From contig CAVURJ010000002.1 in assembly GCA_963743885.1 (NCBI GenBank), positions 241,706 through 305,705 of the forward strand: DNA of 64,000 nucleotides, given 5' to 3'. The notes under the pieces were generated by a model. That model was given only the letters and a program-made list of their open reading frames with translations. It did not search any database and had not been told where the DNA came from. The DNA comes from Candidatus Moraniibacteriota bacterium (GTDB lineage Bacteria > Patescibacteriota > Minisyncoccia > Moranbacterales > UBA1568). Below, piece by piece: positions 14 to 60,415 of this stretch (position 1 is its first letter; the number at the start of each line of letters is the position of its first letter). A program made the translations under genes and the position numbers.

Positions 14-1360
14 TTGGTATCACTCTCTGTTAGATTTTCTGCAAGCAATAAGACTGATTGGATAAGTATGGTAAAGCACACGGAAAACATGCAGCCGCTT
101 GCGGATCGGATGCGTCCGAAGACGATTGAGGAATTTTCCGGCCAGGAGAAGGTCTTGGGCGAGGGATCATTTCTCCGGCAGGCGATCGCAGCTGATCGGG
201 TGCCATCGCTCATCTTCTGGGGACCGCCCGGGAGCGGCAAGACGACCCTGGCGCTCCTCATCGCGCGCGAGACGGCGGCGGAATTTCATCAGCTCTCCGC
301 TGTCGGGAGCGGCGTGAAGGAGCTGCGCGCTGTCATTGAGCAAGCGGAGAAGAATAAGGCGGATGGCAAGAAGACTATTCTTTTCATCGATGAGATCCAT
401 CGCTGGAACAAGTCGCAGCAGGATGCGCTCTTGCCGCACGTCGAGCATGGGACGGTGATACTCATCGGCGCGACGACGGAGAATCCGAGTTTCGAGGTGA
501 ATGCCGCGCTCCTGTCGCGCTCGCGCGTCCTGGTGCTTGAGCGGCACAGCGAAGAGGCGCTTATCTCGCTTATGCAGCGGGCCGTAGAGTTTCTCAATCA
601 CCCATCTTCGAATGAAGGTCATTTCAATAACCCCTCACCATCGAAGACTCGGGAGCTCCCCTTGGAAAAGGGGAGCAGGATTGAAATAGATGATGCAGCG
701 ATCGCTTTTATCGCGGCGGTCTCCGGCGGCGATGCCCGGACGGCGCTCAATACACTCGAAGCCTGCGCACTCCATGCGGCGCATATCGATACAGCGGTCG
801 TCGAGAGCGTCGTCAAACGTTCGCATCTTCTCTACGATAAGGATGGCGAATGGCACTATGACATCATCTCGGCGTTCCACAAATCTATGCGCGGCGGCGA
901 TCATGATGCGGCGCTCTACTATCTCGCGCGCATGCTTGAAGCCGGGGAGGATCCGCTCTATGTCGCGCGGCGCTTGGTGCGGTTTGCATCCGAGGATGTC
1001 GGTCTCGCCAATTCATTCGCGTTGCCACAGGCGGTCGCGGCGTTTCAGGCGTGCCAGATGCTCGGGATGCCGGAGTGCGAGGTGCATCTTGCTCAGGCAG
1101 CTGTCTATCTCGCGAAGTCCAAGAAGTCCAATGCGCTCTATACCGGCTACGGCCAGGCCAAGGAGGATGTTCGGAATATGCCGAACGAACCGGTACCGAT
1201 GCATCTTCGCAATGCGCCGACCAAACTCATGAAGGGGCTCGGCTATGGCCAAGGGTACAAGTACACGCCGGACTTCAAGGATGCGAGTGAGGCAGCGCAG
1301 GAATATTTCCCGGAACGGCTCAAAGGAAGGAAATATATAGAGTTCGGCGAGGAGAAATAG
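14..1360 (+). CDS. rarA: Replication-associated recombination protein A (RarA/MgsA), AAA+ ATPase. The ORF opens with TTG at 14 and likely ATG starts are at 68 or 89. It carries an in-frame palindromic insertion at about 600-700.
   Basis: Translation has Walker A GPPGSGKTTLA, Walker B ILFIDEIHR and the MgsA C-terminal helical domain (YYLARML, GMPE), typical RarA architecture. Confidence 0.85.
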   Translation: MVSLSVRFSASNKTDWISMVKHTENMQPLADRMRPKTIEEFSGQEKVLGEGSFLRQAIAADRVPSLIFWGPPGSGKTTLALLIARETAAEFHQLSAVGSGVKELRAVIEQAEKNKADGKKTILFIDEIHRWNKSQQDALLPHVEHGTVILIGATTENPSFEVNAALLSRSRVLVLERHSEEALISLMQRAVEFLNHPSSNEGHFNNPSPSKTRELPLEKGSRIEIDDAAIAFIAAVSGGDARTALNTLEACALHAAHIDTAVVESVVKRSHLLYDKDGEWHYDIISAFHKSMRGGDHDAALYYLARMLEAGEDPLYVARRLVRFASEDVGLANSFALPQAVAAFQACQMLGMPECEVHLAQAAVYLAKSKKSNALYTGYGQAKEDVRNMPNEPVPMHLRNAPTKLMKGLGYGQGYKYTPDFKDASEAAQEYFPERLKGRKYIEFGEEK

Positions 1361-1365
1361 GTCGC

Positions 1366-1394
1366 TTGACGTATTTGAAAAAACGGTCTATACT
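1366..1394 (+). promoter_or_regulatory. Sigma70-like promoter: TTGACG, 17-bp spacer, TATACT.
   Basis: Read directly: ttgacg tatttgaaaaaacggtc tatact, just after the rarA stop and about 100 nt upstream of the 1495 ORF. Confidence 0.45.
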
Positions 1395-1494
1395 ATATTT
1401 CTGTAAGGTTTACGGACTTTGCAACGACCTATTCATATGAAAGGCCGTTTTGTTTTTCTAGTAGTAGTTTAACAACGAGAGAGGAGTAAGACCG

Positions 1495-1935
1495 ATGGAA
1501 AGAAATACTGGGTGTGTTTTGCGGAGCGGAACAGAGAAAGAGTTCCGCGAATGGCTGGACATGATGATGCGCCGAGGTGTGTGCGCGTTGAACGACATGA
1601 AAAGCGTCAGCAAGGCGCTTCCGGAAATCTACGGCATGTTGCGCGGCAGTCTGCGGAAGAATTACGGAGATGCGATCGCTGTTCAGATGACGATCAAGGC
1701 TTTGAAAGTCGCCGCCTCTGTCGATGGCAAGATGAATGCCACCAAGTTCTTTTTCGAGGATCTCGAGGAATGCTTGCGGCATGATCGCCCGGGCGTCATA
1801 TCGGCGCGATTGGTCATCCGAGCCGTCATGCGCAGTCGTGGGAGGATATCCTTTCCGCGCTCCCCAAGCGCCATAAGGCATCAGCATTTCAGGCAGGCAT
1901 CTGAGACGGCTTACCCGGCCAGGCTCGCGGCGTAA
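1495..1935 (+). CDS. Hypothetical protein, 146 aa.
   Basis: ATG at 1495 is preceded by the RBS gagaggag. A strong promoter lies upstream. No recognisable domain. Confidence 0.45.
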   Translation: MERNTGCVLRSGTEKEFREWLDMMMRRGVCALNDMKSVSKALPEIYGMLRGSLRKNYGDAIAVQMTIKALKVAASVDGKMNATKFFFEDLEECLRHDRPGVISARLVIRAVMRSRGRISFPRSPSAIRHQHFRQASETAYPARLAA

Positions 1936-2049
1936 CACCGCCGAAAGAGCCAATACATGAAACCCGCGAGTCCGAAAGGATTCCCGGGTTTTTTCTTTTT
2001 TCCGGATATGGTACGATACGGAGTCGGTAATATATTGGCGCTTTCTATT

Positions 2050-3444
2050 ATGCAGATCAGGATTTCTAAGGAAACTGTCGCTTATTGGCAGAAGAAGGGC
2101 GCACTCGCGTTCGTTTTTGAGAAGGATGGGAAGGATGGCATGCTCGCGGAGCGCGGTGAGAGAACGACGATGACGATCGCTGTTGATTTGGAAAAAATAA
2201 CGAGGCGCAAGCTCATATTGCTCGCGCGGCGTATCGTACGCGAAGCGATGGCGAAGAAGTACGGAAGCATCGTGATTGATTTCGCGCAGTTCCATTTTCC
2301 GGGGCTCGCGATGGAGGACGAGGATCTGGCTGAACTCATCGCGACTGAGTTCGTCATGGCTGGTTTCGAATTTCGCGATTTCCTCTCGGTACCGAAGGAA
2401 GGGTGGCCGGAAGTAAAGACAATCGTCCTTACTAGTGCCTCTGGCAAAGGTGTTCGCCAGGGCATCGAGCGTGGCATGGTCATTGGCGAAGAGACCAATC
2501 GTGCGCGGCATATCGCGAACATGCCTGGTGGCGAGATGACGCCGGAGATCCTGGCGCAGCATGCGAAGCGGTCAGTGAAGGGCCTGCCAGTGAAATGCAC
2601 GGTGCTCGATGAGACGGCGATGAAGCGTCTCAAGATGGGCGGCGTGCTTGGTGTGGGCAAGGGTTCGGAAGCGAAGTCATGTTTCATCGTGCTTGAGTAT
2701 CGCGGCACATCCGATAAGAAAGCACGACCAGTCGTACTGGTCGGCAAAGGCGTGACGTTCGATACCGGCGGGATCAACCTTAAACCGGAAGGGTCAATTC
2801 TCGGGATGAATATGGATATGTCGGGCGGGGCAGCAGTCATTCATGCAATCGCAGCTGTGGCTCGGCTTGGATTGAAGAAACATATCATCGCGCTCATCCC
2901 GGCAGCGGAGAATATGCCGAGCGGTTCGAGCTATCGCCCAGGTGATGTAATCCGTTCGATGTCCGGCAAGACGATTGAAGTCGCAAATACGGATGCAGAA
3001 GGGCGGATCATCCTCGCTGATGCGCTCCAGTATGCCAAGCGGTATCGTCCGTCGCTCGTCGTTGATGTAGCGACACTCACCGGCGCAGCGCTCGTCGCGC
3101 TTGGCGAGCGAGCAACAGCGCTCTTCACGCAGGATGAGAAGCTTGAGAAATCATTTCGTGAGCTCGGCGAAGAGAGCGGCGACTATGTGTGGCCGCTGCC
3201 GCTCTGGGATGAATATGATGCGGAGATCAAGGGGACAGTCGGTGATGTTGCGAATCTTGGCAAGACGCGCTGGGGCGGTGCGATCACGGCAGCTGCATTC
3301 CTCAAACAGTTCGTCGATCAGGCGTATCCGTGGGTCCATCTCGATATCGCGCCGCGCATGACGGCACTTTCGGACGAGTTCCTCGGCAAGGGTGCAGCTG
3401 GTGCACCGGTGCGTCTTCTCGTGAAGGTATTGGAGAAATTTTAA
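2050..3444 (+). CDS. pepA: Leucyl aminopeptidase, M17 family. An alternative upstream ATG sits at 1957.
   Basis: C-terminal catalytic domain motifs VGKGVTFDTGG, NTDAEGR and DVATLTGA. The N-terminal MQIRISKE... resembles the PepA N-domain. Confidence 0.85.
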   Translation: MQIRISKETVAYWQKKGALAFVFEKDGKDGMLAERGERTTMTIAVDLEKITRRKLILLARRIVREAMAKKYGSIVIDFAQFHFPGLAMEDEDLAELIATEFVMAGFEFRDFLSVPKEGWPEVKTIVLTSASGKGVRQGIERGMVIGEETNRARHIANMPGGEMTPEILAQHAKRSVKGLPVKCTVLDETAMKRLKMGGVLGVGKGSEAKSCFIVLEYRGTSDKKARPVVLVGKGVTFDTGGINLKPEGSILGMNMDMSGGAAVIHAIAAVARLGLKKHIIALIPAAENMPSGSSYRPGDVIRSMSGKTIEVANTDAEGRIILADALQYAKRYRPSLVVDVATLTGAALVALGERATALFTQDEKLEKSFRELGEESGDYVWPLPLWDEYDAEIKGTVGDVANLGKTRWGGAITAAAFLKQFVDQAYPWVHLDIAPRMTALSDEFLGKGAAGAPVRLLVKVLEKF

Positions 3445-3477: not shown

Positions 3478-3995
3478 GGAAACATAGAAACCCGCCCAGC
3501 GTAAGCAAGTAATTTTTCCGTTAGGCCGCCGAACTCACGAGCCTTTCTGTAAGCGAAGGATTTCCCTCCCTCTCCACGACCAAAGCCTGCCTGCCAGTAG
3601 GCAGGGAAATCCTCCGATCAGAAAGGCTCGCTCAGACAGCAGCGACTCAAACGGAGAAAATTCTTGCTACGTCGGCGGGTTTCTTCCGTGGTATTTTGCA
3701 GGAGCTTCCTTTTGAAGTCTTTCCTGGGCCGAGTCTGGGCGCGGGAAGGATTTTACCATCAAGGCATTCCTTCTCCGGATTTCTTTTTTCTTCCCCTGGT
3801 TTCCGGCGGTCACATTTCTGATGAGTGAGCCGGTAACGGTCGAGCGTGGCGTTCGGGACTGTTTCAGCCCTCAGAACGAACAGCTCCCCGTTCGGCAGAG
3901 TGAGTCAGGAATGTTCGACGGAAATCATGGAATGAAAAAAGGAAACTGGGGAAGGAATACCATTAAGAGACCAGTACGGTTAGGCGGGTTTTAAA
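3478..3995. repeat. Intergenic composite repeat, family A copy 1 (A-left about 3481-3745 plus A-right about 3748-3992).
   Basis: About 90% identical over about 260 bp to the reverse complement of 10870-11133, and about 85% identical over about 240 bp to the reverse complement of 13115-13384. Contains a long imperfect palindrome centred on the hairpin cctgcctgccagtaggcagg. Confidence 0.6.
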
Positions 3996-6234: not shown

Positions 6235-6414
6235 AGCTATCTCAAATCTCATGTCTTGAGAAAACATCTGGATTTCGTGATAGAAACCATGAAAAGTGAG
6301 AAGGGCTATCGTGATATCCCGACGAGCTTTGAGGGGTTTCTAGCCGAAATCCAGATGTTTTATCAGACAAGCCCATGGTTTTTCCCTTATGTAGGCGGTG
6401 GGATTTGAGATAGT
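6235..6414. repeat. Intergenic structured repeat, family B copy 1.
   Basis: Perfect 12-bp terminal inverted repeat ctatctcaaatc/gatttgagatag and an inner 18-bp stem gagaaaacatctggatttcg/cgaaatccagatgttttatc. Shares core blocks (gggctatc, cgacgagctttga, ccgaaatc, gacaagcc) with 22905-23052. Confidence 0.55.
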
Positions 6415-10729: not shown

Positions 10730-11133
10730 GTTTGTTTCTTCTCGCCTTCCCACTCGGACCAGCAACCTTCCGGAGAATCATGGTCCCGCCCCGGCGTGGC
10801 GGTCCCATTACCTTCCGTCCTCGCTCTCCGATGCTTCGCATCGGAACCGTGCCCGCTCGGACTCCAGAGTTTCTCCGGAAGATTCTGGCCTCGGGAAAGG
10901 CTTCAAAATGAAGATCCTACAAAATACCAAGGAAGAAACCCGACCCGTGCAAGAATTTTCTCCGTTTGAGCCGACGCTGTCTGAGCGAGCCTTTCTGATC
11001 GGAGGATTTCCCTGCCTACCGGCAGGCAGGCTTTGGTCGTGAAGAGGGAGGGAAATCCTTCGTTCACAGAAAGGCTCGTGAGTTCGGCGGCCTAACGGAA
11101 AAATTGCTTGTTTACGCTGGGCGGGCTTCATCC
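10730..11133. repeat. Family A repeat copy 2, inverted relative to copy 1. The 10870-11133 part matches A-left; 10730-10870 is a divergent module.
   Basis: The reverse complement aligns base for base with 3481-3745 at about 90%, with paired substitutions in stems. Sits between rfbC and rfbB. Confidence 0.6.
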
Positions 11134-11161
11134 TATAATTAATTTATTTGAAATATTGATT

Positions 11162-12163
11162 ATGAAGATTTTAGTCACTGGCGGGGCCGGATTTATCGGC
11201 AGCAATTTCATCCATCATATCCTCGGGACATATCCGGAGGATGAGGTGGTCAATCTCGATGCGCTGACCTATGCGGGCAACCTCGAAAATCTTGCGGCGT
11301 GGAAGGATGATGCGAGGTATCGTTTCGTGAAGGGCAGCATCACGGATGCTGCAGTCGTCGAGCCGCTCGTGGCCGAGTGCGATATCGTGGTGCATTTTGC
11401 GGCTGAGTCGCATGTCGACCGGTCCATCATGGATCCAGGGATCTTTCTCGAGACGAATGTGCGTGGGACGTATACGCTGCTTGAGGCAGCGAGGAAGCAC
11501 GGCAAGCGGTTCCATCATGTCTCGACCGATGAGGTGTTCGGCGCTTTGAAGCCGGAGGACCCGCCGTTCAACGAAGAGACACCGTACGATCCGAGGAGTC
11601 CGTACAGTGCATCCAAGGCCGCCTCAGACCATCTGGTGCGCGCGTATTTCCATACGTACGGATTGCCTATCACGATTTCTAATTGCTCCAATAATTACGG
11701 TCCGTACCATTTCCCGGAAAAGCTCATTCCGCTCGCAATCACCAATCTCATCGAAGGGAAGCAGGTGCCTGTCTATGGCGATGGCGTGCAAGTGCGTGAT
11801 TGGCTTCATGTGTCGGACCATTGCCGGGCGATCGATACGATCATCCGGAAGGGTATGATCGGCGAAACGTACTGCGTGGGTGGGAACGGCGAGCGCGAGA
11901 ATATCTGGATCGTGAAGCAGCTTCTTTCGGCGCTTGGCAAGGATGAGAGCGCGATCGAGTATGTGAAGGATCGGGCGGGGCATGACCGTCGTTATGCGAT
12001 CGACTACGGCAAGATCGAGCGTGAGCTTGGCTGGCATCCGACCGTGACGCTCGAGGAGGGCCTTAAGGATACAGTGACTTGGTTCAAAGAAAATGAAGCC
12101 TGGTGGAAGAGCGTGAAGAGCGGCGAGTATCAGCAGTATTATGAGAAACAATATGGAGCGTAG
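11162..12163 (+). CDS. rfbB: dTDP-glucose 4,6-dehydratase.
   Basis: Starts MKILVTGGAGFIGSNF with the SDR catalytic YSASK motif. Confidence 0.9.
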   Translation: MKILVTGGAGFIGSNFIHHILGTYPEDEVVNLDALTYAGNLENLAAWKDDARYRFVKGSITDAAVVEPLVAECDIVVHFAAESHVDRSIMDPGIFLETNVRGTYTLLEAARKHGKRFHHVSTDEVFGALKPEDPPFNEETPYDPRSPYSASKAASDHLVRAYFHTYGLPITISNCSNNYGPYHFPEKLIPLAITNLIEGKQVPVYGDGVQVRDWLHVSDHCRAIDTIIRKGMIGETYCVGGNGERENIWIVKQLLSALGKDESAIEYVKDRAGHDRRYAIDYGKIERELGWHPTVTLEEGLKDTVTWFKENEAWWKSVKSGEYQQYYEKQYGA

Positions 12164-13016
12164 GAAAGTCTTGATTCTCGGAGCGAAGGGGATGCTGGGG
12201 CAGGAGCTCGTGCGTGTCTATGGCGAGGATGAGGGCTATGAGGTCGCAGGCTGGGACTACGGTGATATCGATGTCACGGATTTCGCGGCGGCCGAGGAGA
12301 AGATCCGCGGCTTCGCACCGTCGGTTATCGTGAATGCGGTCGCCTATAATGCCGTCGACCAGTGTGAGGAGAGCGAGGAGGAATATGCGAAGGCGATGAA
12401 ACTCAATGCTGAGGTTCCGGGATTTCTCGCACGGCTCACGAAGGATCTTGATGCGACGCTCGTTCATTATTCTTCGGACTATATTTTCGATGGGGAAAGC
12501 GAGGAGAGCTATGCGGAAGACGCTCTGCCGCATCCGCTCTCGAAGTACGGCATGAGCAAATGGGAAGGGGAGAAGCGTGTGATCGCCGAAGGTGGGAAGT
12601 ACTATGTCGTCCGCCTCTCCAAGCTCTTCGGCAAGCCGGCGTCATCTGCCACAGGGAAGAAGAGTTTCTTCGAGAAGATGCTTGAGGTTGCTAAGGATAA
12701 GACTGAAGTCACGGTCGTCGATGATGAGAAGAGCTGCTTCACCTATGCGCCGGATCTTGCGCTTGCGACCAAGGTGCTCGAGATGTACCAGAAGCCGTAT
12801 GGTATCTATCATCTGGTCAATGAAGGAGTCGTGACGTGGTATGAGGCAGCCAAGGAGCTTTTCAAGGTCGCTGGCATCGATGTCGCTGTGAAGCCGGTCT
12901 CACCGGATGCTTTTCCGCGGCCTGCCAAGCGCCCGCATTTTTCCGCACTCAAGAACACTAAGTTCGTCGCCCTTCGGCCGTATACTGAGGCACTGGAAGA
13001 ATTCTTGAAGAAATAG
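12153..13016 (+). CDS. rfbD: dTDP-4-dehydrorhamnose reductase.
   Basis: RmlD-like sequence with LILGAKGMLG, HYSSDYIFDG and YGMSK. Overlaps the rfbB end. Confidence 0.85.
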   Translation: MERRKVLILGAKGMLGQELVRVYGEDEGYEVAGWDYGDIDVTDFAAAEEKIRGFAPSVIVNAVAYNAVDQCEESEEEYAKAMKLNAEVPGFLARLTKDLDATLVHYSSDYIFDGESEESYAEDALPHPLSKYGMSKWEGEKRVIAEGGKYYVVRLSKLFGKPASSATGKKSFFEKMLEVAKDKTEVTVVDDEKSCFTYAPDLALATKVLEMYQKPYGIYHLVNEGVVTWYEAAKELFKVAGIDVAVKPVSPDAFPRPAKRPHFSALKNTKFVALRPYTEALEEFLKK

Positions 13017-13029
13017 TTTTTATAAGTGT

Positions 13030-13400
13030 TTTTTTGTTATCTCCTACCCGGAAACTCCCTGTCTGCCGACAGGCAGGTTTTCTCGAGCAAAAGGAAACTC
13101 GAAGGGCTTGTTGTTCTGTATTCCTTCCCCAGTTTCCTTTTTTCATTCCATGGTCCCCAGCGAACATCCCTGACTCGCTCTGTCGAACGGAGGAGCCCCG
13201 CCCGACACGCTTGACGCGAGTCATGCGGGCGGGTGTCCGTTCTGAGGACTGAAGCAGTCCCGAACGCCACGCTCGACCGTTACCGACTCACTCATCGCAT
13301 CCGTGACCGACATCAACCAGAGGAAGAAAAAAGAAATCTGAAGAAGGAATGTCCGATCCGGAAATCGCGTCTCCTGTTAGGCGGGTTTTTTTGTTTTTTA
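13030..13400. repeat. Family A repeat copy 3, inverted. Contains the A-right module plus a variant of the central hairpin of A-left.
   Basis: The reverse complement of 13115-13384 aligns with 3748-3992. It carries an extra 44-nt hairpin insertion (cccgcccg...cgggcggg) and the hairpin cctgtctgccgacaggcagg. Confidence 0.55.
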
Positions 13401-22904: not shown

Positions 22905-23052
22905 GTAATTCTCTCAGATCTTATGTCTCAAGAAAATTTTCGGATTTCGAGGGGAAAACCTTTGAAGAAGCGAGGAGGGCTATCAAGATAACCTGACGAG
23001 CTTTGAAAGGTTTTACACCGAAATCTGAATATTTTATGAGACAAGCCGATTC
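22905..23052. repeat. Family B repeat copy 2.
   Basis: Same orientation as B1 and shares the conserved core blocks. Stem positions differ from B1 by paired substitutions, so the structure is conserved. Confidence 0.5.
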
Positions 23053-23143
23053 TTTCTTTTTTGGTGGCGGTGAGATTGAGAGAATTACTAAAAAAACATC
23101 CCCGGGACTATTCAAGTCTCGGGGTTTTTGATAAGGAGGTGAT

Positions 23144-46276: not shown

Positions 46277-47878
46277 TTATATAGCATACGTTTTGTTAGA
46301 TAATATGGGCCTGTAGTAAAGTGGTATTACGCGGCATTCGCATTGCCGAGTCGGGAGTTCGATTCTCCCCAGGTCCACCAAATCGGATTTTTTATCGCCA
46401 AAGGTCTCACTTATCTCAAAGATAAGCCCCAATTTGGCAGTTCCAAATCCTACACCTTTCGTATAGCGTATTCCCTCGGGAAAAACCAGTTTTTGGAACC
46501 GAGGATACAGATGCGGGGGTAAATCCGTCCATTGTCTTCCTAAATCGCTTATGTAGCGTTCTGCATAGGCTACCGAGGCTTCTGCATCGAATTGTTCTAT
46601 CCGAGCCTCACTTCGCGAAATACGCGAAGCTATGAGTTCGTTTTCTACTTCGGCTTTCCGTTCGGTAAATTCTTCCTTTGTATAGGAGCCGTCTTCTCGC
46701 ATCTCGAAAATCCGTTTACGCTTCTCTTCCAAAAGGGCGATTGTCTTATCGTATCGTTTCGCCTCGGCTTCAAAATGTCCGCCTTTGTCTTTCCAGATAC
46801 TCACAATGGTCGAGTTGATGAGGTCGCGAACTTTCTTCTTAGGGATGATTTTTTGGAGCTTCTTTACGAAGTCTTCTGCTACCTTGTCCACGGAAAGACT
46901 TTTGCAATACATAGAGCAACCCTTGGTGAAGCAATGATAGTAGGGGTATGCTCCACCTGTTCCGTGGGAAATACTCGCGGTTACTGCTTTACCGCACTCT
47001 CCGCAGAGGATTGTTTTCCGCAAAGGAAAGGTTGGATTTACCTTGTGGCGGAGGATTTTCACGCCCTTACCCGCCATTCGTTGTTTGATTTGATAGTGTT
47101 CTTCTTCTGTAATCATCGGTTTGTGCAATCCTTTGACTTCTTCTTTCGCCCACGGATTGACGATGATACCTGCATAAAAGTTCAAATGCCTGAAAAGCAA
47201 TCCGCTCACGAATTGCACTCGTGTTTTGCTTCCTCGGTATTTATCAAGCCCCCACTCATTGAACAAACGAGCAAGCTCTGTTTGAGAGACTTGCCCGCGA
47301 GCGTATTCTTTCAATCCGCGTTGAATAATAGGAAAGATGTTTTCGTCTGGCTTGTCGGGTTCGTTTTTCTTTTCGCCTCGTTTCTTGGCTTGTCCGCAAA
47401 TGTAGCCGATAGGAGGCTTCCACGGAAAGATGCCTTGGTTTATTCGTGAAATCATTCCGTCCACGCAACGCTGACGACGAACGGCATTATCAAATTCAGC
47501 ACTGCCCGCCAACACGGTCTCGATGAACTTTTCGGTCGGGTTGTTTCCAATTGGTTCCGTTACGGAATGGAGGGTTACGCCATAATCAAGAAGCACCTTG
47601 CGGACATAGAAATGGTCTTCGGTATTTCTGGCGAACCTGTCTACTTTGGCAACTACAAACGCATCCATTTCCCCTTTATTCTTTCGGCAAAGTTCGATAG
47701 CTCGCAGGAACTCCTTGCGGTCGGCAGATTTTGCCGAAGCTCCCTCCTCACGGAAAACGGCTACGATTTCGATGCCTCGGTCTTTGCAATAGTTTCGGCA
47801 AATCTCTTCTTGAAAATCAAGAGAAGTGCCTTTGATTTGTTCGTCGCTTGATACGCGTGTATAGATTATTCCTTTCAT
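46277..47878 (-). CDS. Large serine recombinase (resolvase/invertase N-domain, recombinase domain and zinc ribbon).
   Basis: Starts MKGIIYTRVSSDEQ with the catalytic Ser, then ...VAKVDRFARN and CGECGK..YYHC zinc ribbon. The open frame runs antisense through the tRNA, so the true C-terminus is probably shorter. Confidence 0.85.
   Translation of the reverse strand: MKGIIYTRVSSDEQIKGTSLDFQEEICRNYCKDRGIEIVAVFREEGASAKSADRKEFLRAIELCRKNKGEMDAFVVAKVDRFARNTEDHFYVRKVLLDYGVTLHSVTEPIGNNPTEKFIETVLAGSAEFDNAVRRQRCVDGMISRINQGIFPWKPPIGYICGQAKKRGEKKNEPDKPDENIFPIIQRGLKEYARGQVSQTELARLFNEWGLDKYRGSKTRVQFVSGLLFRHLNFYAGIIVNPWAKEEVKGLHKPMITEEEHYQIKQRMAGKGVKILRHKVNPTFPLRKTILCGECGKAVTASISHGTGGAYPYYHCFTKGCSMYCKSLSVDKVAEDFVKKLQKIIPKKKVRDLINSTIVSIWKDKGGHFEAEAKRYDKTIALLEEKRKRIFEMREDGSYTKEEFTERKAEVENELIASRISRSEARIEQFDAEASVAYAERYISDLGRQWTDLPPHLYPRFQKLVFPEGIRYTKGVGFGTAKLGLIFEISETFGDKKSDLVDLGRIELPTRQCECRVIPLYYRPILSNKTYAI
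46307..46380 (+). tRNA. tRNA-Ala (anticodon CGC) with genome-encoded CCA.
   Basis: Cloverleaf folded by hand: 7-bp acceptor stem with G3:U70, D stem gtaa/ttac, anticodon stem cggca/tgccg with loop ttCGCat, T arm gggag-TTCGATT-ctccc, discriminator A plus CCA. Confidence 0.85.
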
Positions 47879-48108
47879 AATTTTGTAGTTAGAAAAACCC
47901 AAAAGGCGGTTCTGGCACCCAACTAAACGGCCAAAGCTGTTTTCGTCGGCAGAACCGCCTTTTGGGCGTACGAAAACAAAAAATTTGGCAGTATATTATA
48001 GTTGGGTGCATCTATATTATGCCTCATTTTTCGCTTTCTGCCAACTCCTTTTTGAGGATTTTTGCGAGCTTTTTTATCGCTGTATCGCTCATATCTCCTA
48101 TGACAGGC

Positions 48109-49164
48109 TCAATTTCTGAATTGCCCAAACTTGATACCACGGATGATTTCTGTTTGCCTGTCCGTAGAGATTTTCCCGTAGCCGTAAGAACCAAAGGTTG
48201 TCCCCACGTCTGTATGTCCGAGATTTTGACTGATAGCTTTCTTTTCTTCTTCCGTCAGTCGCGTCTTGATGAACTCTTTGACGATGAGATGCCGAAAGGT
48301 ATGCGGATGAAAATAGGGGATGCCTGCACCCTTGAAACGTTTCTCAAATATCTTTCGGGCGGGCGATGCGTTACTCCAAAAGATAGGCTCGACCACTCCC
48401 GAACTGTAATAGCTGATATTTTCTTTCCCTTGTTCCAATTTGGTGGCAGGAAAAAGCGGGTCGCCTGAAGAAAACTTCCGCTTCTGCTCAAGATAGTCGA
48501 ACCATTCCAGAAAGTAGGAAAGTGGCTTTGGGTCTGGCATTGGGAAGAGGGCGGTTGTAATCATCTTGGAAAACTTGGTTTTCACTCCCGAGGCAGGGTC
48601 TTGCTCCAAGATGAGCCTTCGTTTATCAAAGCTCTTCATTCGTAGGCTGGAAATAGCGGAAATTCTTGCTCCCGTGAGGAGCGTGAGGGCGATGAGAGCT
48701 TTATCGCGTTTTTCCACCTCGGTTTCTCCATTGATACTCTCAAGCACTTTTAGGACTTCCTCGAAAGTCGGAGCATCCACTGTCCTTGCTCGGGTGGCTA
48801 TCTGGCTTTCTTTCCGCGAGAGGTTCAGGAAGCCTATATGGGTAGCGTTGATTTTGGATTTCGGCTGTTGGGCAAGCCACTCGAAGAACTTCCGCAGATA
48901 GCGGAGAATATCGTAGCAATAGCTCAAGCTGATGGAGTTTTTGGAACCCTTCTTTTCCTTTCCCTTGAGCCAGTCTCTGAAAGCGATTGCCTGCTTATCG
49001 TTGAATAGGCTGAAATCTTCCGTCTTGGTAAAGTCTTCCCAGTAGAGCAAGGCTTTCTCGAAAGACCCTATGGAATTAGCTGAAAATTGCTCTGAATTTT
49101 TGAGGAAGGCGAAGAACTCACGCTTCGTCATTTCATTCTTGTAATTGGCTTTTTGCATATACAT
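48109..49164 (-). CDS. Tyrosine-type site-specific recombinase/integrase.
   Basis: C-terminal catalytic box HPHTFRH...LGHTDVGTTFGSYGY (H-x-x-R ... Y) and an N-terminal SAM-like domain. Confidence 0.85.
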   Translation of the reverse strand: MYMQKANYKNEMTKREFFAFLKNSEQFSANSIGSFEKALLYWEDFTKTEDFSLFNDKQAIAFRDWLKGKEKKGSKNSISLSYCYDILRYLRKFFEWLAQQPKSKINATHIGFLNLSRKESQIATRARTVDAPTFEEVLKVLESINGETEVEKRDKALIALTLLTGARISAISSLRMKSFDKRRLILEQDPASGVKTKFSKMITTALFPMPDPKPLSYFLEWFDYLEQKRKFSSGDPLFPATKLEQGKENISYYSSGVVEPIFWSNASPARKIFEKRFKGAGIPYFHPHTFRHLIVKEFIKTRLTEEEKKAISQNLGHTDVGTTFGSYGYGKISTDRQTEIIRGIKFGQFRN

Positions 49165-49242
49165 TTAGGCGTTATTGATGATTTACCCGTAAAGAGACAT
49201 TCAGGAGAGAGTTACTGGAACCTGTTAGTCCTTTTGGAAGTC

Positions 49243-49626
49243 TCATACGAGGCGATTTACTTTTGTCTCGCATCGCTCGCATTTTCCTCGTTGTAAGAAT
49301 TGCTTACGCGAATTTTTACCAATTGTTTTTCCTGTCGGCACGGTCTCTTCCGTTCCTGATTTGGCACGGGTCGGCACTCGGCATTTCAGGCAATAATACT
49401 CGCCTTCTTTGAGTGATACTTTCCGCTTCTTCATTTTTTCAGAAAGGAAGTGGCGGAGTTCGTCGCCCATAATGAGGAGGGGACGAGTGTTTTTTTCAAG
49501 GGGATGGAGACCATCCCCAAGCCATCGGAAAATCGTTTTCTTATTGATGTGAAAGAGCGTGGCAATTTCTTCGGGTGTGTAGCTATGGCGAGACGTGATA
49601 AGTCTCGGATTATATCGTCGTGTCAT
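49243..49626 (-). CDS. Excisionase-like HTH DNA-binding protein with a C-terminal zinc ribbon.
   Basis: YTPEEIATLFHINKKTIFRWL helix-turn-helix and CLKC...CERC. Start reassigned to the internal Met at 49626. Lies immediately upstream of the tyrosine recombinase. Confidence 0.45.
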   Translation of the reverse strand: MTRRYNPRLITSRHSYTPEEIATLFHINKKTIFRWLGDGLHPLEKNTRPLLIMGDELRHFLSEKMKKRKVSLKEGEYYCLKCRVPTRAKSGTEETVPTGKTIGKNSRKQFLQRGKCERCETKVNRLV

Positions 49627-49656
49627 ATGTGAGTAATTATGGATTTCAAGCTGGCT

Positions 49657-49829
49657 ATACTTCTTTGGGCGGAAGTGCTCCACCTTGAGCGGTAGCCTTC
49701 CTTTCGGAAAGCCACTGCTCAAAGATAATTTCTCCAAGGATTTGAACGGCATCTCTGATTTCGGCTACTTCCTCATCGGAAAGCGTATCGTCGTCCAAAA
49801 GCTGTCTTGCTTCTTCGATGGTTAGCATA
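49657..49829 (-). CDS. Small hypothetical protein (57 aa) translationally coupled to the upstream DUF5659 gene by an ATGCTAA overlap.
   Basis: Translated by hand: MLTIEEARQLLDDDTLSDEEVAEIRDAVQILGEIIFEQW... It is not in the supplied ORF track because it falls under 60 aa. Confidence 0.3.
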
Positions 49830-50109
49830 CAGCTTCATCCGAATAGAGGCGGTTCTTTATCATCTTTTGGCTATCAAAAAGCGTCCGTGCATTGAGTTGC
49901 AAACGGTCGTTCCAGTAGTCGTTGGTGCTCGTCTCGATAGTCGGGACGCGTCGAAAGATGAACCGAGCTTTCTTCGGGTTTACGGTTCGCTCAAGGGTAT
50001 GTAGCTCATACCCCAAAGCCACGAGAGAAGAAGCCAAGCCAAGGTCGGTCGTGGCATACTTCGCTTCTTCAGATAGTTCTGCTGTCTCCTTTAGATGTTT
50101 GGTAATCAT
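49822..50109 (-). CDS. DUF5659-like protein.
   Basis: DLGLASSLVALGYELHTLER...ARFIFRR...DYWNDRLQLNARTLFDSQKMIKNRL matches the remembered DUF5659 pattern common on mobile elements. Confidence 0.45.
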   Translation of the reverse strand: MITKHLKETAELSEEAKYATTDLGLASSLVALGYELHTLERTVNPKKARFIFRRVPTIETSTNDYWNDRLQLNARTLFDSQKMIKNRLYSDEAVC

Positions 50110-50285
50110 AAAGATTGATTGTGAATGATGATTACCAATCGCGATTGGATTTTGGAGGTCTCCTACCTCATATGGCGAATTTCACCCTCACCGTGTATGA
50201 AAAAGAAAAAATCCCTTATTAGAGGGACTTTTTTACGCTTCAGTATTGTGTAGACCAACTGGTGAATTTCACCGAGGCAGTTTTC

Positions 50286-51833
50286 CTATAAATTTGGGGC
50301 TACGTCTTCCATATAATCACCAATATCAGAGTAGGGGTCGCTCTGTCCTTTTTTATCATCGACATAGGCTTTGTTTTTCTCCGTCGCCATTTCGCTAAAC
50401 AAGGTAAATCTCGTTCTATAGGAGTTATTTTCCTTGTAGGGATGAAATGGGTCGCTCTCCATACTGAAATAGTTTTTTAGTATATCGGAGACTTGCTGTT
50501 TTTGCTTTTTATACTGCACCTTAGCTGTTTCGTCAGGAATGGATATTTCTCCATTTTGTATCGCTAAAACTTTGAAAAAATCCCATAGGACACTCGGATT
50601 TCCATCGTGCTTCCCAAACCCCATCTCTTCGTATGTTGCAGTATGTTCCTTAGAGGGGAGTTTTATATGTATCTTTTCATCTTTCAAAACCTTCATTGAT
50701 ACCTGCCTCCACTCTGTTCCTGCTGGGATAGTAGAGGGGAACTTATGCTTTGTTTTGCTGGCGTTTCGCTTATCATCAATGCTGATGGCAATCTCTTTTT
50801 CCTGAATACTGTTCTGAAAGGTATGGATATGCTCGTGTTTGATTACCGTTCCTTTCGGTTCTGTAGCATCATCTTTTTTGGTGTCCGTCTTTTTATCAGA
50901 AGAGAATTTTTGGAAAAAATCCTTTTCTTTTTCCAACATAATACTTTTGAGACCTGCTACTTCCTCTTTGATAGTCCCCAACAATAAGGCGACGCTTTTA
51001 TCGAACGGATGGATTTCTGAATTGTTCTCAAACAAATCTTTGTCAGCCACTGTTTCCCTGAAATCAATAAGATATTGTTCTACACCGTCCGACCAAGTTC
51101 CATCAAGAAAATCAGGGGCGGAATAAAGGCTGGTTATTGGCTCGATAAGACCTTGGTAGCATTGGCTTTCTTTCAATCCTTCAAACGACGGTTCACTAAG
51201 AACAACCTCCATCAATTTTCTTCGCAATACCTTGAAAGAAACATTGAGTTCATCAATGCCCGACCTCAAGAAAATAAGTCCGTTGCCATAGTAAGCCCGT
51301 ATAATCGCCTCATAATACGAATACAGTATGCTCAAGAGATAAATCTTCTTATTGAGGGAGAAATCACTAAACTGAAAAGTGTTGAAATCTCTGATTATCT
51401 TTGATTTTTCCAAAACTGTTTTTGCTTCAGCTTGGAAGGAAACAGAGCTGGGAGCCGATACCAACCTCGCGGCAATATCCTTCACTTTTTGTATAAGCAA
51501 CAAATCGGTTGGAGATATTTCTTTGCCATTCAGCATAGAACTTACCTCCATATACTCAATCAAGGCGTATAGAGTTTTTCCGACGGTCAAATCATCTTCA
51601 TCTTCCCAGATAGTCCGCAATCTATTGGCTTTGGATGCCGAAAGGTTTTCTCTATCGTATTTCGGACTATAAATCTCTATACCGAAGTGTTCCTGAAAAA
51701 ACTCTTCTATTGTCCGATTGGAAAAATCCAGAACGTATCCTTGGCTCATTCCAAAAAGCGTTTCGATGATTTTCCTTTCACTCCCATTGAATTTTATACT
51801 CATTCTCATTTGAGAAGCATTTCCTCTGCCCAT
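50286..51833 (-). CDS. Large hypothetical protein (515 aa), possibly defence- or abortive-infection-related.
   Basis: No domain confidently recognised. A weak Rx6H motif (RNASKTKH) is present. Heads an operon that ends in the tyrosine integrase. Confidence 0.45.
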   Translation of the reverse strand: MGRGNASQMRMSIKFNGSERKIIETLFGMSQGYVLDFSNRTIEEFFQEHFGIEIYSPKYDRENLSASKANRLRTIWEDEDDLTVGKTLYALIEYMEVSSMLNGKEISPTDLLLIQKVKDIAARLVSAPSSVSFQAEAKTVLEKSKIIRDFNTFQFSDFSLNKKIYLLSILYSYYEAIIRAYYGNGLIFLRSGIDELNVSFKVLRRKLMEVVLSEPSFEGLKESQCYQGLIEPITSLYSAPDFLDGTWSDGVEQYLIDFRETVADKDLFENNSEIHPFDKSVALLLGTIKEEVAGLKSIMLEKEKDFFQKFSSDKKTDTKKDDATEPKGTVIKHEHIHTFQNSIQEKEIAISIDDKRNASKTKHKFPSTIPAGTEWRQVSMKVLKDEKIHIKLPSKEHTATYEEMGFGKHDGNPSVLWDFFKVLAIQNGEISIPDETAKVQYKKQKQQVSDILKNYFSMESDPFHPYKENNSYRTRFTLFSEMATEKNKAYVDDKKGQSDPYSDIGDYMEDVAPNL

Positions 51834-51917
51834 TGCAGGGAAAATACGACGTTTGGCGTAATTGTAATCGTGTAGTATAGTTATGGTAACTTATATAGGG
51901 CGTGAAATCAAGCTTTT

Positions 51918-52109
51918 ATGGAAAGAAAAGAACTGCCAGATATTCTAACTTTGAAGCAAGCCTGTGCGGTTTTGAATTGCCATCCCAATACGCTTAGGCT
52001 ATGGGATAAAAAAGGTATTTTAGTAGCTATACGCCTCGGCAAGAGACGCGATAGACGTTATAGGAAAGACCAAATCTTTGCTTTGTTAGAAACATCTCAT
52101 AAAGGGTAA
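51918..52109 (+). CDS. Helix-turn-helix (AlpA/MerR-type) DNA-binding protein.
   Basis: LTLKQACAVLNCHPNTLRLWDKKGIL. Confidence 0.6.
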   Translation: MERKELPDILTLKQACAVLNCHPNTLRLWDKKGILVAIRLGKRRDRRYRKDQIFALLETSHKG

Positions 52110-52133
52110 AGTATCCGTAACAATATAATTACT

Positions 52134-53852
52134 ATGTCAGAAAATTCACTCAAAAAAGGTCGCTACACGAAATACAGCAATAAAATTGGATTGTATAGCA
52201 ATAGCAAAGGGGGATTTATCAAAAACGATACTGACGTAGTTCTGAACTTCCCGTTCAAAGATACTGTGCTTGAAGCGGGGATGAACAAAGAGGATGTAGG
52301 GCGTGATGAGCGTTTTTTACATTTGGAAATTGATAGTAAAGACATCGACACATTGGAAGAACCGAAAGTGCTTACTGACTTCCTCTACTTTGATAAAGAT
52401 GGCGAGAAGGCGTTAGACGCAAATAGTGATATTGAGTTTTTTGATATTGAAGGCAATCTCAAACAAAACTTACTCATCAAGGGCAATAACTTACTGGCAC
52501 TCTATACTCTTCGAGAAAAACTCGCTGGAAGGGTGAAAGCGATTTATATTGACCCACCCTACAATCCTCCGAGTAAGTCAAACACATTTATTTACAATAA
52601 TAACTTCAACCATTCCTCTTGGTTGGTATTTATGAGAAATCGCCTTGAAATGGCGAAACAGCTACTAACGGACGATGGTGTTCTTATTTGTGCCATTGAT
52701 GAAAACGAACTTGCGTATTTGGGAGTTTTGATTGACGAAGTTTTTGGCAGTGAAAAGGAAAGTCATTTCATTACTATTGTTCATAATCCACGAGGTATTC
52801 AAGGCACTAACTTCTCTTACACTCACGAATACGCAATCTTTGTTATTCCAAAGGGGCTGAAAACTATTGGAAACCGAAAAATTGAAGCTGAAGATATCTC
52901 TTGGCGTAACTTGCGAGATAACGGCGGAGAGTCGTTGCGCACAGACGCAAAAAACTGTTTTTACCCAATGGTGGTAAAAGACGGTGAAGTTATAGGCTTT
53001 GGTGATATAGCAAAAGATGAAATACACCCTAATGCCAATGAACCGCAAACAGATGGCTCGATATACATATACCCAATCGACCCAAGTGGAATTGAGCGTA
53101 AATGGCGATACGCACGACAAAGCGTTGATAAAATAAAAAATTTGTTGCGAGCAAAAGAGTCAAAGGGGGTTTGGCAGATAGAAATTGGTAAAGACTTTGG
53201 TCAATATAGAACAGTTTGGCAAGACCCCAGATATGACGCTAACGAGTACGGCACTAAATTGGTAAAAAGTCTTGTGCCAAGTTCGGAGTTTGATTTTCCA
53301 AAATCTCTGTGGAATGTATACGACTGTCTTTATGCGGTTGTTGCAGATGACCCAAATGCTATCATCTTAGATTTCTTTGGTGGAAGTGGCACTACCGCAC
53401 ACGCTACACTGGAACTGAATAAGGATGGCGGTAGTAGGAAGTTTGTCATAGTAGAACAAATGGGCTACATCGCATCCGTAACTCTCCCAAGAATTGAAGC
53501 TGTGATAAAGAAAGACACCCTAAAAGAGTCTTTCGTGTATTTTGAACTCAAAAAATACAACCAAGAATACATCGACCGTATTGCGAAAACTACAAGTCTC
53601 TCTGAACTGGAAGAAATCTATGTGGATATGCGAAACAACGCTTTTCTCAAGTTTTGGTTTGACCGCAAAGAGTTTGAAAAGGATGAGAATTTCCGTAATC
53701 TCGACATTGAGGGTCGGAAGCAAAAGCTCGTGGATGTATTGGATGAAAATCAGCTCTATCTGAACTATGCCGATATGGGCGATACACGGCACAAAGTAAC
53801 TGCCGACGAAAAAACACTAACGGACAAGTTCTATGGCTCGGAAAAAAACTAA
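52134..53852 (+). CDS. mod: Type III restriction-modification Mod subunit (beta-class DNA methyltransferase).
   Basis: Motif IV IYIDPPYN precedes motif I FFGGSGTT, which is beta-class order. Overlaps the downstream res gene. Confidence 0.8.
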   Translation: MSENSLKKGRYTKYSNKIGLYSNSKGGFIKNDTDVVLNFPFKDTVLEAGMNKEDVGRDERFLHLEIDSKDIDTLEEPKVLTDFLYFDKDGEKALDANSDIEFFDIEGNLKQNLLIKGNNLLALYTLREKLAGRVKAIYIDPPYNPPSKSNTFIYNNNFNHSSWLVFMRNRLEMAKQLLTDDGVLICAIDENELAYLGVLIDEVFGSEKESHFITIVHNPRGIQGTNFSYTHEYAIFVIPKGLKTIGNRKIEAEDISWRNLRDNGGESLRTDAKNCFYPMVVKDGEVIGFGDIAKDEIHPNANEPQTDGSIYIYPIDPSGIERKWRYARQSVDKIKNLLRAKESKGVWQIEIGKDFGQYRTVWQDPRYDANEYGTKLVKSLVPSSEFDFPKSLWNVYDCLYAVVADDPNAIILDFFGGSGTTAHATLELNKDGGSRKFVIVEQMGYIASVTLPRIEAVIKKDTLKESFVYFELKKYNQEYIDRIAKTTSLSELEEIYVDMRNNAFLKFWFDRKEFEKDENFRNLDIEGRKQKLVDVLDENQLYLNYADMGDTRHKVTADEKTLTDKFYGSEKN

Positions 53853-56664: not shown

Positions 56665-56682
56665 TTATGAGGGTGTCGATAT

Positions 56683-58215: not shown

Positions 58216-58234
58216 GGCTAATTCGGGTTAGATT

Positions 58235-58798
58235 ATGTATCATCCTATTCAACCACCAGAAGGAAGTATTGAATGGATGAAGGAGATGGTAAAGAAGAAT
58301 GAGGGGCGTGAGTTGACTGACCAAGAGGCTCACGAAGCGGCTTACAACTATCTCAACTTCTTCAATATGCTTATCTACCTGGATAAGAAGCAACACCCTA
58401 TGAAAAAACTTTACCTTGATATTGACGGGGTGCTTCTTACCAAACAGGGGGTTCCCGCCTCGCATATTGTAGAATTTCTTCAATTTGCTACGAGCCATTT
58501 TGATTGCTACTGGCTCACGACCCATTGCGATGGAGACGCAACCACCGCATTCTTGTATCTGGTAGGAAAACTTCCACCTGAAGCCGTTCCATATTTTGAA
58601 AAGATAAAGCCTACCAAATGGAAGCTCTGGAAGCCCGAGGGGATAGATTTTTCAAGCGATTTCTTCTGGCTCGATGATTACGCCTTTGATGGGGACAAGA
58701 AAGTTTTGGAAGAGCATAAGGCGTTAGAGAAGCTAATCACCGTAGACCTCAATAATAATCCAAATCAGCTACGAGACTTGGTAAATATCTTGAAATGA
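58235..58798 (+). CDS. HAD-like hydrolase candidate.
   Basis: DxDGV motif I (LYLDIDGVLLT). 20 bp downstream of the helicase gene. Confidence 0.4.
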   Translation: MYHPIQPPEGSIEWMKEMVKKNEGRELTDQEAHEAAYNYLNFFNMLIYLDKKQHPMKKLYLDIDGVLLTKQGVPASHIVEFLQFATSHFDCYWLTTHCDGDATTAFLYLVGKLPPEAVPYFEKIKPTKWKLWKPEGIDFSSDFFWLDDYAFDGDKKVLEEHKALEKLITVDLNNNPNQLRDLVNILK

Positions 58799-60160: not shown

Positions 60161-60415
60161 ATGGCTTGGTACACATATATTGCGAAAGCGAGAACCGGCC
60201 GGTACTATACCGGTATTACGAATGATCCTTGTAAAAGAATTGAGAAACACAATTCTGGAAAAGGTTCTCTCATGGCGGTTCAACAGGGGCCATTTGATCT
60301 CGTGTATGTTTCGAATGAATTTCCAGGAAAATCAGAAGCTAGAAAACGGGAAGAACAGATTAAGGGCTGGAGCAGAGAAAAGAAAGAGAAGTTGATTTTT
60401 GGTGAATGGGTATAG
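60161..60415 (+). CDS. GIY-YIG nuclease family protein.
   Basis: WYTYIAKARTGRYYTGITNDPCKRIEKHNSG is the GIY-YIG/URI signature. The ORF opens with GTG at 60119 and ATG at 60161 is the more likely start. Confidence 0.7.
   Translation: MAWYTYIAKARTGRYYTGITNDPCKRIEKHNSGKGSLMAVQQGPFDLVYVSNEFPGKSEARKREEQIKGWSREKKEKLIFGEWV

Follow-up and report, generated by a model that had tools for sequence, protein, structure and literature searches.

Introduction

In-frame intragenic repetitive extragenic palindromic sequences (REPs), which are often dimers encoding 20-30 amino acids, are known from several phyla in genes such as a tRNA synthetase, truB and repair genes, and in two Xanthomonas species REPs are located at one and the same site of recB (PMC3733652). 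REP superfamilies are marked by an unpaired GTAG or CGTC tetranucleotide 5' of the stem, some families of Rickettsia palindromic elements (RPEs) are counted among the intragenic REPs, and many REPs have been argued to act as RNA elements (PMC3733652). An inverted REP doublet is referred to as a REPIN, in which the spacer is less conserved than the arms and of which singlets are remnants (PMC3116915). The classic example of insertion in frame is provided by RPEs (Ogata et al. 2000, as summarised in PMC10969869), and mitochondrial hairpin elements also invade coding regions (PMC2800124). The subject of this report is a hairpin repeat that lies in frame within both rarA and queA of a Candidatus Moranbacteria genome, a metagenome-assembled genome (MAG) from the candidate phyla radiation (CPR, Patescibacteria). 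Coordinates refer to the whole stretch of DNA analysed, which is 64 kb in length and is called the window; L-numbers denote the DNA loci or contigs with which it was compared and P-numbers the protein homologues.

We are confident that the repeat is a palindromic element at the level of the DNA that has been inserted in frame into loops of its host proteins. The fuller reading, in which it is a dispersed non-coding hairpin repeat of the REP/REPIN kind inserted into protein-coding genes, is the one that we favour, with moderate confidence. In-frame REPs have been published for other phyla, and what is new here is the CPR/Moranbacteria lineage. CPR genomes are small and gene-dense and their repeats are seldom discussed, and still the essential enzymes RarA, QueA, IleRS and DnaX accept disordered loops encoded by in-frame hairpins.

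A hairpin repeat in rarA and queA

The two genes and the parts of the repeat are arranged as follows.

68-1360, plus strand: rarA (mgsA), with Pfam AAA, AAA_assoc_2 and MgsA_C; host of copy 1
590-680, plus strand: extra segment of rarA, residues ~175-204, net +63 nt, missing from close orthologues
629-680, plus strand: rarA singlet 'B unit', with the AACCCCTCA box, a small hairpin in degraded form (CGA-agac-TCG), hairpin GCTCCCCTT-ggaa-AAGGGGAGC at 655-676 and tail AGGA
61143-62369, plus strand: queA, encoding tRNA preQ1(34) S-adenosylmethionine ribosyltransferase-isomerase (Pfam Queuosine_synth, E 1.3e-98)
61413-61532, plus strand: queA insert 1, residues 91-130, 120 nt versus 18 nt (GAGGATGAGAAGCGCATA) at the empty site, net +102 nt
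61422-61457, minus strand: left arm of the queA doublet, an inverted 'A-type' unit, with hairpin CCTCCCCTT-tcc-AAGGGGAGG at 61425-61445, followed by GTAGG and GAGGGGT
61458-61475, plus strand: doublet spacer, GAGAGTGAGAGTATCAAG, diverged from the spacer of L135 while the arms are conserved
61476-61527, plus strand: the doublet's right arm, of the 'B unit' type, with AACCCCTCA, small hairpin AGTCT-cgc-AGACT, AGCTCCCCTT-gga-AAGGGGGGC and GAGAG

A repeat finder aligned rarA 624-673 with queA 61471-61520 over 50 ungapped nucleotides at 84% identity (family D7), and nhmmer lengthened the match to approximately 622-680 versus 61469-61531 with E-values of 1.6e-7 to 2e-7, which refer to the 64-kb window only. 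The element of about 65 nt that a first-pass annotation of the window had proposed for both genes is thereby borne out, and so is the hairpin that it had described as ctcccctt-ggaa-aaggggag, which is exact in rarA (CTCCCCTT-GGAA-AAGGGGAG at 656-675) and is found with up to three mismatches in queA. The 20-mer hairpin CTCCCCTTGGAAAAGGGGAG has three matches in the window when up to three mismatches are allowed, the other two being at 61503-61522 on the plus strand and at 61425-61444 on the minus strand, and matches occurred in none of 100 dinucleotide shuffles. The corresponding G+C-rich stems of 9 bp are located at 655-676, 61425-61445 and 61503-61522, and all three hairpin units known in the window are intragenic. 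As the same annotation had quoted, the rarA and queA copies are translated as NPSPSKTRELPLEKGSR and NPSVSQTRQLPLERGAR, respectively, in an identical frame relative to the element. It had assigned a single copy to queA and missed the minus-strand hairpin at 61425-61444, which lies inverted 30 nt upstream of the queA copy; queA carries an inverted doublet instead.

In the B unit, which is about 52 nt in length, the box AACCCCTCA is followed by a small hairpin that varies, by the conserved hairpin AGCTCCCCTT-GGAA-AAGGGGAGC (also GCTCCCCTT) with its stem of 9 bp and by an AGGAG tail. In its fuller form the repeat is composed of two inverted units around a short spacer, of which the queA doublet (~106 nt) is one example and those of L136 and L137 are others. 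In queA the left arm, with the order hairpin, GTAGG and GAGGGGT, mirrors in inverted orientation the right arm, with the order ACCCCTC, spacer and hairpin, and the left arm shares the architecture of a widespread motif, ACCCC(A/T)CC-N-CTCCCCTTGGAAAGGGGAGG. The 120-nt queA insert folds into one long hairpin both as DNA (-30.4 kcal/mol, z -4.9) and as RNA (-61.5 kcal/mol, z -5.1), and the rarA singlet has a DNA fold of -11.9 kcal/mol (z -2.9). The coding strand of the left arm also contains a G-quadruplex-type motif of four tracts, GGGGAGGGTAGGGAGGGG, at 61439-61456, which shares sequence with the 3' half of that arm's hairpin; the widespread A-type motif of other phyla reads GGGGAGGGTTAGGGTGGGG.

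Insertion into disordered protein loops

The window protein RarA (replication-associated recombination protein A) is 100% identical to P0001, and its homologues are named as Candidatus Moranbacteria RarA. The window QueA is matched exactly by P0121, and its homologues likewise bear Moranbacteria names; P0001 and P0121 are both encoded on a contig of 500,284 bp. The homologues P0002-P0006 (85-89% identity) are 409-413 amino acids in length versus 430 here and are without 21 of the amino acids, reading RALDDAKTHFGREVEAD where the window reads RAVEFLNHPSSNEGHFNNPSPSKTRELPLEKGSRIEID; the empty site was seen in the DNA of L121. The window QueA, with 408 amino acids against the 322 positions of the Queuosine_synth profile, likewise has homologues (70-86% identity) without the segment of 38-40 amino acids, which read NEIEDEKRIPVLVDRK in its place, and the empty site was seen in L122 DNA between well conserved flanks, with 83% identity over the whole gene. 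Alignment with orthologues thus supports the view, first put forward in the annotation, that the segments are insertions.

Its further suggestion that the segments occupy tolerated loops agrees with the structural models, in which both inserts are disordered loops between confidently predicted secondary structure elements. AlphaFold2 assigns a predicted local distance difference test score (pLDDT) below 50 to RarA residues 180-202, which are flanked by helices with a pLDDT of 77-90, and to QueA residues 93-126, which lie between strands 80-85 and 130-135. In comparison to solved structures, the Escherichia coli MgsA/RarA structure 3PVS has a gap at the RarA insert, and local alignments to the QueA structure 1VKY stop around the inserts, skipping residues 87-180 and 306-332.

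Given that the source is a MAG and that repeats can mislead assemblers, it might be argued that the inserts are an artefact of assembly or binning, such as a chimeric join at the repeat. However, the reading frames are intact through both inserts, the same QueA protein of 408 amino acids is encoded in a Logan assembly of run ERR12035942 that was made independently, and related inserts are found in independent ENA, JGI and Logan assemblies, all of which makes an artefact exceedingly improbable.

Recurrence at the same sites

The queA gene of L135, which has 62% nucleotide identity to the window queA, contains a matching inverted doublet at the identical codon position. The left arms of the two doublets are 92% identical and the right arms ~96% identical, the spacer has diverged, and the L135 right arm is shifted by one frame so that it reads SKPLSLEDSTAPLGKGG versus NPSVSQTRQLPLERG. 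A more degenerate doublet is present in the matching place of queA in L136. In L137 the RarA protein (P0079) has a full doublet with three hairpins at the rarA insert site, and its insert has the same left (AVEFLN / AVDFLN) and right junctions as that of the window. Because both junctions are common to the two inserts, the rarA copy looks like a doublet of the L137 kind from which the left arm has been lost and the right arm survives.

A possible explanation for this recurrence is a homing-like gene conversion, whereby the doublet would move between orthologous queA or rarA alleles following DNA uptake and recombination, with no transposition to new sites. The exact codon position in QueA of genes that are 62% identical and yet have arms of 92-96% identity would be expected from such a process, as would the two junctions shared by the rarA and L137 inserts and the replacement, rather than splitting, of the queA loop codons, and the optional GC clusters in the yeast mitochondrial var1 gene provide an analogy. 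However, the bases that flank the arms differ between the window and L135, as in the shared Ser-Gln (AGTCAG versus TCTCAA), and there is no visible conversion tract. Furthermore, the copies in rarA, queA, IleRS and DnaX as well as in intergenic DNA of other phyla need non-homologous insertion, and the QueA loop also holds unrelated palindromes in other lineages, which fits a selection filter that acts on random insertions. As the full account of the repeat, gene conversion is therefore unlikely; between alleles of the same gene it may add to the same-site pattern of a repeat that we take to be of the REP/REPIN kind.

Conservation as DNA and not as peptide

In L130 a copy of the repeat, AACCCCTCACCCTCGGAGACTCGGGAGCTCCCCTTGGAAAAGGGGAGCAGGA, is located inside a 1017-amino acid open reading frame (ORF) for IleRS. 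It is identical to the rarA copy at 50 of 52 nucleotides (96%) and is read in a different frame, as TEPLTLGDSGAPLGKGEQ. A reverse-strand copy is present in the DnaX linker of a Moranbacteria bacterium (L125, L126 and L131). The DnaX proteins of L125 and L131 have 76% identity and their element is 100% identical over ~55 nt, while the linker around it is otherwise poorly alignable and rich in indels. In total the DNA of the repeat is read in at least three forward frames, as NPSxSxTRxLPLEKG, KPLSLEDSTAPLGKGG and EPLTLGDSGAPLGKGE, and on the reverse strand, as APLSKGSSRENAGEGL. To judge by these comparisons, the repeat is conserved as DNA and not as peptide, and near-identical arms that are read in different frames within genes of 62% identity make it a clean example of conservation at the nucleic acid level inside coding sequence.

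The peptides of the two window copies are similar and are read in one frame, from which it could be proposed that the repeat is a protein-level module, with the peptide NPSxSxTRxLPLEKG recruited for a function such as that of a binding loop. This proposal is contradicted by the frame data, since L135 QueA, L130 IleRS and L125 DnaX use other frames or the other strand and encode unrelated peptides, and the segments are modelled as disordered. Moreover, when the 40-amino acid queA insert was compared exhaustively by phmmer with 1.84 billion proteins the sole match was an unrelated repeat protein, and a homologue search with a 46-amino acid concatenation of both peptides found no shared words. 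A protein module is thus very improbable. As the searches at the peptide level were fruitless, the host range of the repeat was established at the level of DNA.

At least ten different stems, namely GCCC/GGGC, GTCC/GGAC, GGCT/AGCC, GCCT/AGGC, CCCGC/GCGGG, CCCGCG/CGCGGG, GTCTCG/CGAGAC, GCCTGC/GCAGGC, AGTCT/AGACT and ACCAT/ATGGT, occur in the small hairpin of the B unit without a change in its position, and this hairpin is degraded in the rarA, L130 and L136 copies. A hairpin position that is maintained through different stem sequences is one of the features that might indicate a functional cis-element under selection, in which the hairpin, whether RNA or DNA, might for instance be bound by a protein, stabilise the mRNA, cause a pause in translation at a domain boundary or form a G-quadruplex/hairpin switch. 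Such a function would also be in keeping with arms that are far more conserved than the host genes, with a flanking box that is conserved across phyla, with the G-quadruplex-type run on the queA coding strand and with the RNA roles argued for many REPs (PMC3733652). However, the element is dispensable, as orthologues of 80-89% identity exist without the insert, it occurs in both orientations at unrelated positions of unrelated genes, its small hairpin is degraded in the rarA copy, and no Rfam family was found at or near its gathering score. We regard selection for such a function as rather improbable.

Distribution across phyla

A scan of metagenomes for the two-box pattern yielded 12 loci, and the 17-mer hairpin core was found at no fewer than 120 loci in species-representative genomes. 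Among the matches listed, the hosts of the core include Nostoc, Scytonema, Chamaesiphon, Prevotellaceae, Desulfohalobiaceae, Nitrospirota, Gemmatales, Dehalococcoidia, Alphaproteobacteria, Gammaproteobacteria and several CPR groups, and in the first three of these the A-type motif is abundant. An ACCCC(A/T)C box lies within 34 nt of the core in 83 of the 133 pattern matches listed, although the search pattern did not force the flanks, and the typical boxed form across phyla is TACCCCACC(C)TAACC-CTCCCCTTGGAAAGGGGAGG. There are at least eight copies in the genome of a Prevotellaceae isolate, at least eight in a proteobacterial MAG and at least five in a Desulfohalobiaceae MAG. Because most of the core copies among the matches listed sit in short stop-free stretches, those of other phyla are probably intergenic for the most part, and some copies are in long ORFs which, by eye from conserved motifs, look like enzymes of the TruB, RsmB or RluA families. 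In 2.9 million viral contigs the B-type pattern had no matches and the hairpin core had two, and phages are thus not an obvious reservoir of the repeat.

Two side observations concern the cyanobacterial copies. In Nostoc, the only difference between orthologous in-frame copies within an ORF of ~600 amino acids (L058 5199-5229 versus L065 7156-7186) is that the hairpin loop is inverted, one copy reading CTCCCC-TTTCCAA-GGGG (PFPRGG) and the other CTCCCC-TTGGAAA-GGGG (PLERGG), which suggests that the hairpin or cruciform is formed in vivo. The motif is arranged in tandem in Scytonema sp. NUACC26, where L002 2527-2692 consists of five head-to-tail 37-nt repeats that contain the hairpin core and are without spacers.

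Comparison with described repeat families

The repeat resembles REPs and REPINs. Like these it is made up of short G+C-rich imperfect palindromes without target-site duplication, its singlets resemble decayed doublets, and its inverted doublet folds into one long hairpin with arms that are more conserved than the spacer, as seen between queA of the window and of L135. It lies in frame in housekeeping genes, sometimes at one site in related species. REPs and REPINs are mostly extragenic; the core described here is mostly located in short reading frames in other phyla, and the three units of the window are intragenic. The repeat differs from REPs and REPINs in its lack of a GTAG/CGTC tag, in a unit that is built as a double hairpin behind an ACCCCTC box, in its CPR host and in a copy number that appears low in the Moranbacteria lineage, and no REP-associated tyrosine transposase (RAYT) was seen among the window frames scanned. 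Described REP units measure 20-40 nt, and a cognate RAYT gene usually has REPs at its flanks.

The annotation had likened the repeat to RPEs, and the comparison is fair as a statement of how the repeat works, in that both are palindromic repeats that interrupt unrelated metabolic and housekeeping genes in frame, are missing from orthologues and are tolerated where the fold allows. The closest described relatives are nevertheless the intragenic REPs and REPINs (PMC3733652, PMC3116915), whereas RPEs are ~100-150 bp in length, are restricted to Rickettsia and have one conserved peptide per family; the unit here is 52 nt and the doublet ~106 nt, several frames and both strands are used, and the core occurs in many phyla. 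RPEs number tens of copies per genome; three hairpin units of the present repeat lie in the 64-kb window. Mitochondrial GC clusters, double-hairpin elements and repetitive hairpin-forming elements (PMC2800124) are also tiny, G+C-rich and non-coding elements of one or two hairpins which invade intergenic DNA and occasionally, in frame, coding DNA. Their presence varies between strains, and gene conversion is believed to be the way in which they spread. They belong to organelles of fungi and sponges and have no sequence relationship to the repeat, so that the analogy is one of mechanism only.

A further family of possible relevance is that of the small dispersed repeats (SDRs) of heterocystous cyanobacteria, which were reportedly described by Elhai and colleagues in 2008 as hairpin-capable sequences of 21-27 nt and are said to be regarded as the smallest mobile elements. 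The likeness, which is drawn by description only, is that of hairpin-capable dispersed repeats in Nostoc-type genomes, in which the A-type motif is abundant; we know of no description of SDRs in CPR bacteria. A full-text literature search returned no report of such repeats for CPR/Patescibacteria and none with these sequence strings, which agrees with the annotation insofar as it knew of no such elements in the lineage, but the core itself is not lineage-specific and is found in many phyla.

Several other identities were considered and rejected. The hairpins are not intrinsic terminators, being located inside ORFs, where they are followed by AGGATTGAA and GAGAGAGAT, with no T-run at a gene end. 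Nor are they repeats of the CRISPR type, as the copies are isolated, the window has no array and the Rfam CRISPR-DR scores are 15.6-19 bits versus gathering scores of 39-45. At the gathering level Rfam recognised tRNA-Ala only, with sub-threshold noise around both inserts. A miniature transposable element with inverted repeats (MITE) would have inverted arms, as the repeat does, but there is no target-site duplication and no insertion sequence (IS) was found among the window frames scanned with Pfam, which comprise 49 of the 57 candidate reading frames, the remainder being eight short frames of 94-181 amino acids.

Possible mechanism of spread

It is proposed that new copies would arise via a single-stranded hairpin intermediate and without target-site duplication, either by means of a trans-acting transposase of the HUH/Y1 type, for which REPINs provide a proposed precedent, or from another copy by gene conversion or template switching. 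Within essential genes, copies would persist only if they comprise a multiple of three bases, contain no stop in the frame that is used and fall into a surface loop, where the Pro, Gly, Ser and charged residues encoded by a G+C-rich hairpin would stay disordered. A filter of frame, stop codons and loops would explain why a few loops are used repeatedly by different families of palindromes, as in the QueA proteins of Moranbacteria, in which four insertion sites are used recurrently by palindromes that include unrelated families. The transposase-driven, REPIN-like route specifically is put forward only as a tentative possibility.

A number of findings weigh against the reading of the repeat as a dispersed element of the REP/REPIN kind. 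Neither a target-site duplication nor a conserved target motif was found at the junctions of rarA, queA site 1 and queA site 4, and in queA the original 18 nt are replaced and not simply split. The GTAG/CGTC tag is absent 5' of the stems, those of the B units being flanked by A/AGGA; in the A-type arm of queA GTAG is found only 3' of the stem, and TTAG, TCAG or TGAG take its place in other genomes. No Y1/HUH or IS transposase is encoded among the scanned window frames, in which the only recombinases, one of the serine type and one tyrosine integrase, both belong to an island beside tRNA-Ala, and RAYT (PF01797) was found neither in these frames nor among the genes listed on the fetched Moranbacteria contigs. 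The window has three hairpin units only, and there are almost no more copies in ~65 kb of Moranbacteria flanks that had been obtained with other aims, from which it follows that the copy number in the lineage may be low. The idea that the element is built to be stop-free was rejected, because five of its six frames are open versus a mean of 3.7 in shuffles (P 0.24). Finally, copies that are near-identical across diverged genomes are unusual for decaying selfish DNA and could mean functional constraint. The word 'selfish', which the annotation had used, thus goes further than the data, as does the word 'mobile'; the data show neither a transposase nor a target-site duplication.

A bolder and, in our view, unlikely extension is that the ACCCC(A/T)C box and the CTCCCCTTGGAAAGGGGAG hairpin constitute one family of double-hairpin mobile elements which moves horizontally across phyla with arms that stay more than 90% identical in very distant hosts, and that in CPR bacteria, which may lack RAYTs, an unknown homing-like mechanism repeatedly delivers the doublet to the same loops. 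If true, such a family would regularly supply reduced CPR genomes with new loops in their proteins. The repeat offers a direct way of asking how REP-like DNA persists and spreads where no cognate transposase is known, and both the near-identical arms across strongly diverged hosts and the core motif that is common to many phyla are worth following up. Its consequences include proteins that are longer than expected, 'hot spots' in alignments and DNA markers that vary between close strains.

Other palindromes in queA and in CPR proteins

A second palindrome of queA, at site 4, is unrelated to the doublet.

62062-62099, plus strand: 38-nt palindrome AGTCTTACAA...TTGTAAGACT, in frame in queA, encoding the peptide KSYNLSNCSNCKT, 91% complementary

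Its fold is significant as DNA (z -4.1) and as RNA (z -5.3), and the residues concerned (QueA 310-327) have an AlphaFold2 pLDDT below 50 and are modelled as a disordered loop. The palindrome is present with conserved arms in L138 and is absent in L122, and none of the compared sequences contains a second copy.

Peptides of the palindrome type are also found in frame in other CPR proteins. The IleRS of L130 (ORF 25-3078, minus strand) contains CHSREVGNPGS, the DnaX gene of L125 encodes VIPDLIRDPE...SGSATGMT at ~6290-6370, which is absent in L131, and the QueA homologues P0122, P0167, P0173 and P0224 carry peptides of the IPRQARNDRE and CHSECNEES types. In-frame hairpin inserts thus look common in the CPR housekeeping proteins of this lineage. 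With regard to the neighbourhood of queA, a small GIY-YIG gene (~60161-60415) is located just before a PAS-domain gene and queA in the window, and a GIY-YIG gene is also found near queA in L138.

Other features of the window

A non-coding segment of ~470 nt between pepA and mraZ (3487-3960) is repeated in inverted orientation at 10885-11129 and 13118-13351 with 84-94% identity (pairs I1-I4), the second copy being split by ~2 kb that contain rmlB- and rmlD-like genes (11108-13016). Pfam and Rfam gave no match that would explain this inverted repeat. A direct repeat of 88 nt (D1, 77% identity) is located at 6294-6381, upstream of a gene for penicillin-binding protein (PBP)/FtsI, and at 22968-23055, just downstream of murJ. 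The island at 46277-59793 adjoins tRNA-Ala(CGC) at 46307-46380 and encodes the serine recombinase and the tyrosine integrase, a UvrD-like helicase and a DUF4238 protein, together with a type III restriction-modification system that consists of mod (52134-53852) and res (53833-56664).

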